64,000 nt of DNA from Escherichia coli (GTDB taxonomy: Bacteria > Pseudomonadota > Gammaproteobacteria > Enterobacterales > Enterobacteriaceae). The notes beneath the pieces were generated by a model. It did no database searches, was not told the origin of the DNA, and saw only the letters and a list, made by a program, of their open reading frames with translations. A program made the translations under genes and the position numbers. Every line of letters begins with the position of its first letter. Positions within the stretch are counted from its first letter, which is position 1. The stretch is taken from the NCBI RefSeq assembly GCF_003334355.1, contig NZ_QOWP01000007.1; one strand, given 5' to 3'. Below, in pieces: positions 55,281 to 55,310 of the stretch.

Positions 55281-55310
55281 CGGCGATGTATCATCGCCGT
55301 CCATTTTTCG
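55281..55310 (+). terminator. Hairpin plus T-tract immediately 3' of nlpC (plus-strand polarity, possibly bidirectional)
   Basis: GGACGGCGATG-tatc-ATCGCCGTCC followed by ATTTTT. Confidence 0.35.

Follow-up and report, generated by a model that had tools for sequence, protein, structure and literature searches.

The hairpin that lies between ydiV and nlpC in the 64,000-nucleotide stretch of Escherichia coli DNA analysed here (the window) is probably the 3'-end hairpin of nlpC, working on the minus strand as a leaky Rho-independent terminator placed before a separate ydiV promoter. In the nlpC direction it has most of the structural features of an ordinary Rho-independent terminator, with a U-run that is only weakly developed. 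We infer both that transcripts are released at the hairpin itself and that this release is intrinsic (factor-independent), and the hairpin may act as a terminator in reverse too.

Hairpin structure and stability

At the hairpin site, the plus strand reads AGGAGTAAATGGACGGCGATG TAT CATCGCCGTCCATTTTTCGAC. A perfect inverted repeat, AAATGGACGGCGATG / TAT / CATCGCCGTCCATTT (55274..55306), was given by a repeat finder, forming the same hairpin from either strand, with arms (55274-55288 and 55292-55306, 15 nt each) that are 100% complementary and 3 nt apart; none of the others among the 25 longest of the 32 short-range inverted repeats in the 64-kb window has perfectly complementary arms of this length. 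The core, GGACGGCGATG/CATCGCCGTCC (55278-55288 / 55292-55302), is an 11-bp G+C-rich stem which reaches 15 bp with the A-U pairs, and it is this core (55278..55302, minus strand) that is read as the 3'-end or terminator hairpin of the nlpC mRNA, on the basis of its position and of compensatory changes within Escherichia. Folding as RNA gave -26.7 kcal/mol (z = -7.5) for the plus strand and -25.1 kcal/mol (z = -6.3) for the minus strand, and in both cases 0 of 200 shuffles were as stable. The original prediction of a hairpin between two minus-strand genes, ydiV and nlpC, was therefore confirmed, with perfect 15-bp arms and stability on either strand. The interval given at that time, 55281-55310, does hold the hairpin but starts about 3 nt late with respect to the core, and the loop, then read as 'tatc', is better described as TAT closed by a G-C pair.

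The stem of an intrinsic terminator was taken to be G+C-rich and about 5-14 bp long, with a loop of 3-8 nt and a stability above chance, and in the nlpC sense the 11-bp core, with its 3-nt loop and a fold more stable than the shuffles, has all of these properties. The U-run that follows the stem in this direction is weak, since AUUUACUC holds three consecutive U, and four U in eight positions. The sense-strand tail, AUUUACUCCU (55268..55277, minus strand), thus contains a short interrupted U-run from which partial termination would be expected, a reading that draws on the sequence and on the nlpC-ydiV read-through unit of Yan et al. 2018, described below. On the plus strand, the stem-loop is followed by a run of five consecutive T (AUUUUUCG); this tail, ATTTTTCGAC (55303..55312), has its T5 at 55304-55308 and corresponds to the A-run (GAAAAAU) that directly precedes the hairpin in the nlpC mRNA. 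Both tails had been described correctly beforehand, as ATTTTT on the plus strand and as a short T-poor tail on the minus strand, where ATTTACTCCT holds three consecutive T (ATTTAC vs ATTTTT). A simple terminator scan listed the site on neither strand, probably because the stem was extended through the A-T pairs, the T-run being thereby consumed.

Locus layout and transcripts

In the region of the hairpin, the window is 99.6% identical to MG1655, and window coordinates are converted into those of NC_000913.3 by adding 1,736,951. According to the ORF list and to the MG1655 annotation, nlpC (55316..55780, minus strand) encodes an NlpC/P60 lipoprotein of 154 aa, and ydiV, or rflP (54356..55069, minus strand), encodes an anti-FlhDC factor. 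The promoter scan placed the nlpC promoter, TTGAAA-18-TAAATT, at 55809..55844 (minus strand), in agreement with a published TSS at MG1655 1792760 (window 55809). The ydiV gene has its own promoter at 55205..55240 (minus strand), with a published TSS at MG1655 1792156 (window 55205) that lies 7 nt downstream of a consensus -10, TATAAT, at 55217->55212. Along the minus strand, the nlpC stop is therefore followed by the hairpin, then after about 70 nt by the ydiV promoter, and then by a 136-nt leader and ydiV itself, the core starting 13 nt past the nlpC stop and about 70 nt upstream of the ydiV TSS, which is the usual terminator-then-promoter layout. The gene just upstream of the hairpin, nlpC, is thus on the same strand, and a hairpin is found at the equivalent place in at least six genera. 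Moreover, no terminator-like site was found by the terminator scan in the btuD-nlpC gap, so that the hairpin is the first strong structure that polymerases arriving from btuCED encounter.

On the other side of ydiV, the selO gene is interrupted in the window, relative to MG1655, by an insertion of about 2.98 kb (50494-53478), which carries genes for an ISL3-family transposase (50552-51829, minus strand), an SO_0444/arsenic-efflux-like permease (51842-52876, minus strand) and an ArsR/SmtB regulator (52976-53302, plus strand). Some 8 bp of MG1655 can be aligned to either flank of the insert and may represent a target-site duplication. Most of the inserted stretch is carried by about 80 E. coli genomes, the best matches being plasmids, in which the element lies beside lnu(G).

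Transcripts that stop before ydiV and transcripts that read through into it both exist, at gene resolution, in the SMRT-Cappable-seq operon table of Yan et al. 2018 (PMC6131387, Supplementary Data 2). Four units are given there around nlpC-ydiV: b1708 (nlpC) alone and the b1708|b1707 (nlpC-ydiV) read-through unit, both with TSS 1792760; b1710|b1709|b1708 (btuE-btuD-nlpC), with TSS 1794141; and b1707 (ydiV) alone, with TSS 1792156. This table records gene content without 3' coordinates, and the nlpC-only RNAs may end anywhere before the end of ydiV. In the portion of the supplements of Yan et al. 2018 that was covered, '17922' was not among the TTS coordinates searched. The Term-seq tables of Adams et al. 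2021, for three conditions, show no 3' end for either strand at MG1655 17922xx; these lists are of dominant 3' ends only, and nlpC's own end is missing from them too, presumably because of low expression. A full-text search of the literature for the hairpin sequence, as DNA or RNA and on both strands, found no paper containing it, and searches on an nlpC/ydiV terminator or on a ydiV antisense returned nothing relevant.

Inside ydiV, the tables of Adams et al. 2021 contain a Term-seq 3' end 85 nt past the start of the ORF (window 54984, MG1655 1791935, minus strand; Rho score 3.2, 'Yes') and, further into the gene, a Rho termination region (window 54807, MG1655 1791758, minus strand). These ends suggest premature Rho-dependent termination within E. 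coli ydiV, whose expression has been reported as below detection in liquid culture.

In the mechanism proposed, polymerase arriving from the nlpC promoter, or from btuCED upstream, would transcribe GAAAAAUGGACGGCGAUG-AUA-CAUCGCCGUCCAUUUACUCC, whose 11-bp G+C-rich stem could be lengthened by A-U pairing of the A-run before it with the UUU behind it, and would form right behind the short U-run. Some of the polymerases would then release, giving the nlpC-only and btuE-btuD-nlpC RNAs, which the hairpin would shield from 3' exonucleases, while the remaining ones would read through, owing to the weakness of the U-run, to give the nlpC-ydiV co-transcript. The outcome would be a partial insulation of ydiV from the upstream promoters. 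Against a terminator in this direction stand the facts that the sense U-run (three consecutive) is weaker than the plus-strand one (five), which is unusual for an E. coli intrinsic terminator, that the Term-seq tables show no 3' end at the hairpin, and that the nlpC-only transcripts could instead end at, for example, the Rho-dependent 3' ends inside ydiV.

Conservation of the hairpin

The 86-bp segment around the hairpin is present in 5,416 of 5,426 complete E. coli genomes, with a median of once each, and its identity is 99% or more in 3,608 of those 5,416. A repeat element was considered and rejected, the hairpin being single-copy per genome: in the 5,416 E. coli genomes it occupies a median of one place and at most two, which is not the distribution of a repeated palindrome (REP, BIME).

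Covariation was assessed over nine distinct Escherichia sequences, in which both partners vary in 4 of the 15 pairs, with 91.9% of the cells paired. The changes are from G-C to U-A in APEC O2-211, from C-G to U-A in E69 and the cryptic clades, from U-A to A-U in E69, and from A-U to G-C in E. albertii, the other stem variants in Escherichia being single-side wobbles and a few mismatches. No shuffle reached the values of the hairpin, and slid controls were 29-63% paired. Since the covariation exceeds that of the controls, the pairing of the stem is under selection, and such a selected pairing, as judged from sequence comparison, argues for a structural role, of RNA or of DNA, and against a sequence-specific protein site. 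A protein-binding palindrome was accordingly set aside, as it is the pairing rather than the sequence that has been kept in evolution. Given that a G.U on one strand is an A.C on the other, wobbles can also indicate the strand of folding; five G.U cells were counted in the nlpC sense vs three in antisense, with 91.9% vs 90.4% of the cells paired, a difference too small to favour either strand. The A-run, which is the T-run of the plus strand, is 4-5 nt long in all the E. coli variants examined.

Rearrangements have occurred at this site in individual strains. In Escherichia sp. MOD1-EC7003 (locus L002, 2963-3070), a deletion has removed the entire intergenic promoter region and all of ydiV but its last 22 codons; the hairpin stays beside nlpC, and its 3' edge is where the deletion junction falls, at a TCCAT microhomology. 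In E. coli CAVP776 (locus L044, 1569-2720; window ~55318), an IS630-like ISEc33 has entered the nlpC stop codon at its TA, placing nlpC about 1.15 kb from its own hairpin, and in strain EH08-18-36 the ydiV-nlpC region contains an IS1.

The comparison was extended to other genera through an NlpC scan of one genome per species, which provided 29 loci, and through homologous proteins, which provided 8 more. The order btuD-nlpC-ydiV-selO is shared by Escherichia, Citrobacter and the further Enterobacteriaceae loci retrieved. The nlpC stop is followed, 1-20 nt further on, by a stable hairpin (-10 to -27 kcal/mol) in all Escherichia lineages, in most Citrobacter loci, and in Enterobacter hormaechei, Lelliottia, Kluyvera and Buttiauxella, the hairpin sequences being unrelated between genera. 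Clear T-runs, where present, are usually on the nlpC-sense side, those recorded being from Lelliottia (TCGTTTTT, also given as TCGTTTTTAA), Kluyvera (TTTTCTTTT, with a fully symmetric A-run), E. albertii (ATTTTCTTCT), E. coli E69 (TTTTACTTCT) and Citrobacter (CATTTTAAA; CATTT(T)AAA). In the orthologues of E. coli E69, E. albertii, Lelliottia and Kluyvera, 4-6 of the 8 nt after the stem on the sense side are T. A T-rich antisense flank is lacking from E. albertii, from Lelliottia and from most Citrobacter loci, and K-12-type E. coli is the sole case examined with an antisense run (T5) clearly longer than the sense one (T3). No stable hairpin follows nlpC in two Salmonella enterica loci (L031 and L032, 1966-2100; about -4 kcal/mol) or in the Kosakonia locus (L035; best about -4 to -5 kcal/mol), unlike in most of the other Enterobacteriaceae compared.

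Comparison with known terminators

The lpp-type terminator of the window (AAAAATGGCGCACA/TGTGCGCCATTTTTTTT, 17728-17756; A5 / T8) and the ihfA terminator (AAAAAGGCCGC/GCGGCCTTTTTT, 58265-58289; A5 / T6+) both carry a T5 on the non-coding strand. The nlpC hairpin shares with them a G+C-rich perfect stem, a short loop, a location a few nucleotides past the stop codon, an A-run before the stem and a T-run after it, and nlpC-ydiV is also a co-directional pair in which the downstream gene has its own promoter, as is the case for ihfA-btuC. Upstream A-runs that can pair with the U-run are reportedly a recognised feature of strong E. coli terminators. The T5 of the plus strand is the complement of the GAAAAA A-run that precedes the nlpC hairpin, and, with the same symmetry at the lpp-type and ihfA terminators, this is a simpler account of it than a hidden gene. 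The nlpC hairpin is unlike both in its sense run, which is UUU followed by ACUCC instead of T8 or T6+, so that its longer T-run is antisense. It also differs in that the lpp-type and ihfA terminator sequences appear among the dominant 3' ends of Adams et al. 2021, in whose tables there is no 3' end at the nlpC hairpin.

As regards its transcripts, the locus resembles the read-through terminators of Yan et al. 2018 (prs-dauA, dapA-bamC), since one TSS gives a short (nlpC) and an extended (nlpC-ydiV) unit; the poly-U was described in the same work (PMC6131387) as less well defined at sites of high read-through. Bidirectional terminators between convergent genes (Ju et al. 2019, as cited elsewhere; can/hpt in Yan et al. 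2018) have a comparable symmetry of A-run, hairpin and T-run, with which termination on both strands is possible in principle. Those terminators, however, lie between convergent units, and 3' ends have been mapped to each strand there, whereas the neighbours of the nlpC hairpin are on the same strand. Finally, the protective stem-loops of Rho-terminated mRNAs (Dar & Sorek 2018) are also stable, lie just past the ORF and have a U-poor tail, with Rho signals downstream, here in ydiV. The nlpC hairpin is unlike these in having three U and an A-run, and in having orthologues with proper U-runs.

Plus-strand transcription and alternative explanations

Upstream of the hairpin, the sole plus-strand sigma-70-like match found by the promoter scan is TTTAGA-18-AATAAT (9/12; 55198..55227), which overlaps the ydiV promoter on the other strand and from which an RNA of about 75 nt, ending at the T5, would be produced. 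Matches of this kind are at chance level, as 4 promoter-like sites were found in the 5-kb region vs 5.8 +/- 2.6 in shuffles, and the -10 of this one becomes AATATT in E69 and the cryptic clades. A permissive Rfam search of 54300-56000 returned noise only (best match 20 bits vs gathering scores of 41-130), and no RNA gene is annotated in the ydiV-nlpC gap of MG1655 or of the E. coli genomes among the matches listed. The two short plus-strand ORFs that cross the hairpin, at 55169-55369 (66 aa) and 55276-55395 (39 aa), are antisense into nlpC and were discarded as probably not coding, the second one having its ATG inside the stem, with an AGGAG 3 nt before it that is not conserved.

The hairpin had first been proposed as a bidirectional terminator for nlpC or, alternatively, as the end of an unannotated plus-strand small or antisense RNA. 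The nlpC half of the first proposal is well supported, by the position 13 nt past the stop, by the hairpin position kept across genera and by the nlpC-only transcripts. For the other half, in which the T5 side would also stop plus-strand transcription before it runs antisense to nlpC and btuCED, insulating them, the structure is suitable (an 11-bp G+C-rich stem, a 3-nt loop and ATTTTT), and the constant A-run of the E. coli variants speaks in its favour. A+T-rich DNA favours spurious promoters, and both ydiV (42% G+C) and the ydiV-nlpC gap (38%) are A+T-rich in a window of 50% G+C, with the plus-strand promoter-like site standing back-to-back with the ydiV promoter. Nevertheless, that promoter match is at chance level and no known plus-strand unit reaches the hairpin, in so far as none is found nearby in the SMRT-Cappable-seq table, limited to gene-containing units, nor any plus-strand 3' end at MG1655 17922xx among the dominant Term-seq ends of Adams et al. 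2021, from which weak transcripts may escape. Moreover, both genes lie on the minus strand, which is not the convergent arrangement, the antisense T-run is missing in E. albertii and in most of the other genera that keep the hairpin, and upstream A-runs are common at one-directional terminators. A bidirectional function, compatible as it is with a terminator of nlpC, is thus rather unlikely. The second proposal can be stated as a plus-strand RNA of about 75-85 nt, divergent from the ydiV promoter region (start at ~55226-55235), ending at 55309-55312 and complementary to the nlpC-ydiV intercistronic RNA, whose existence is very doubtful. The promoter-like match at 55198-55227 is at the right distance for it, and the putative RNA folds at -31.2 kcal/mol (z = -6.3), a value to which nearly everything is contributed by the terminator hairpin. 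Rfam, the annotation, Term-seq and the literature, in which the hairpin sequence is found in no paper, are all negative for it; the promoter match has a chance frequency and is unconserved outside E. coli proper; and other genera keep the hairpin without a plus-strand T-run. The body of the RNA overlaps the ydiV promoter, and this overlap suffices to explain the conservation of that body. A small RNA as the reason for the hairpin is therefore highly improbable, being unsupported, without having been refuted.

A different account of the nlpC-only transcripts is that Rho ends transcription further downstream, in the untranslated leader or in a poorly translated ydiV, and that exonucleases then trim the RNA back to the hairpin, which would stabilise the nlpC mRNA as a protective 3' stem-loop. 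The U-poor sense tail matches the pattern of Dar & Sorek 2018, and the Rho-dependent 3' end (score 3.2) and the Rho region inside ydiV (Adams et al. 2021) would supply the termination required. On the other side, three U directly follow the stem and an A-run precedes it, clear sense U-runs are present in the orthologues of E. albertii, E. coli E69, Lelliottia, Kluyvera and Enterobacter, and a trimmed end at the hairpin is also missing from the Term-seq tables, so that protection alone is an unlikely explanation.

Implications for ydiV expression

YdiV (RflP), the anti-FlhD4C2 factor, switches off flagellar synthesis, and the share of ydiV transcription that comes from the upstream nlpC promoter, vs its own promoter, differs between Salmonella and E. 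coli. In Salmonella, ydiV is reportedly driven by the nlpC promoter, nlpC and ydiV being co-transcribed, and nlpC insertions are polar on rflP, all of which agrees with the missing terminator. In E. coli ST131, motility rises when nlpC is hit by transposon insertions, which may be a polar effect on ydiV and would then imply some read-through into ydiV in E. coli as well. If the doubtful plus-strand RNA were real, it could tune the transcription driven by the nlpC promoter that reaches ydiV and, through the anti-FlhDC factor, flagellar synthesis. More generally, where a terminator has a T-run on its 'wrong' strand, this is usually the complement of the preceding A-run and does not in itself point to a hidden gene. 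In this context, a leaky terminator after nlpC that is present in E. coli and absent in Salmonella would offer a testable structural reason for the weaker coupling of nlpC and ydiV in E. coli.
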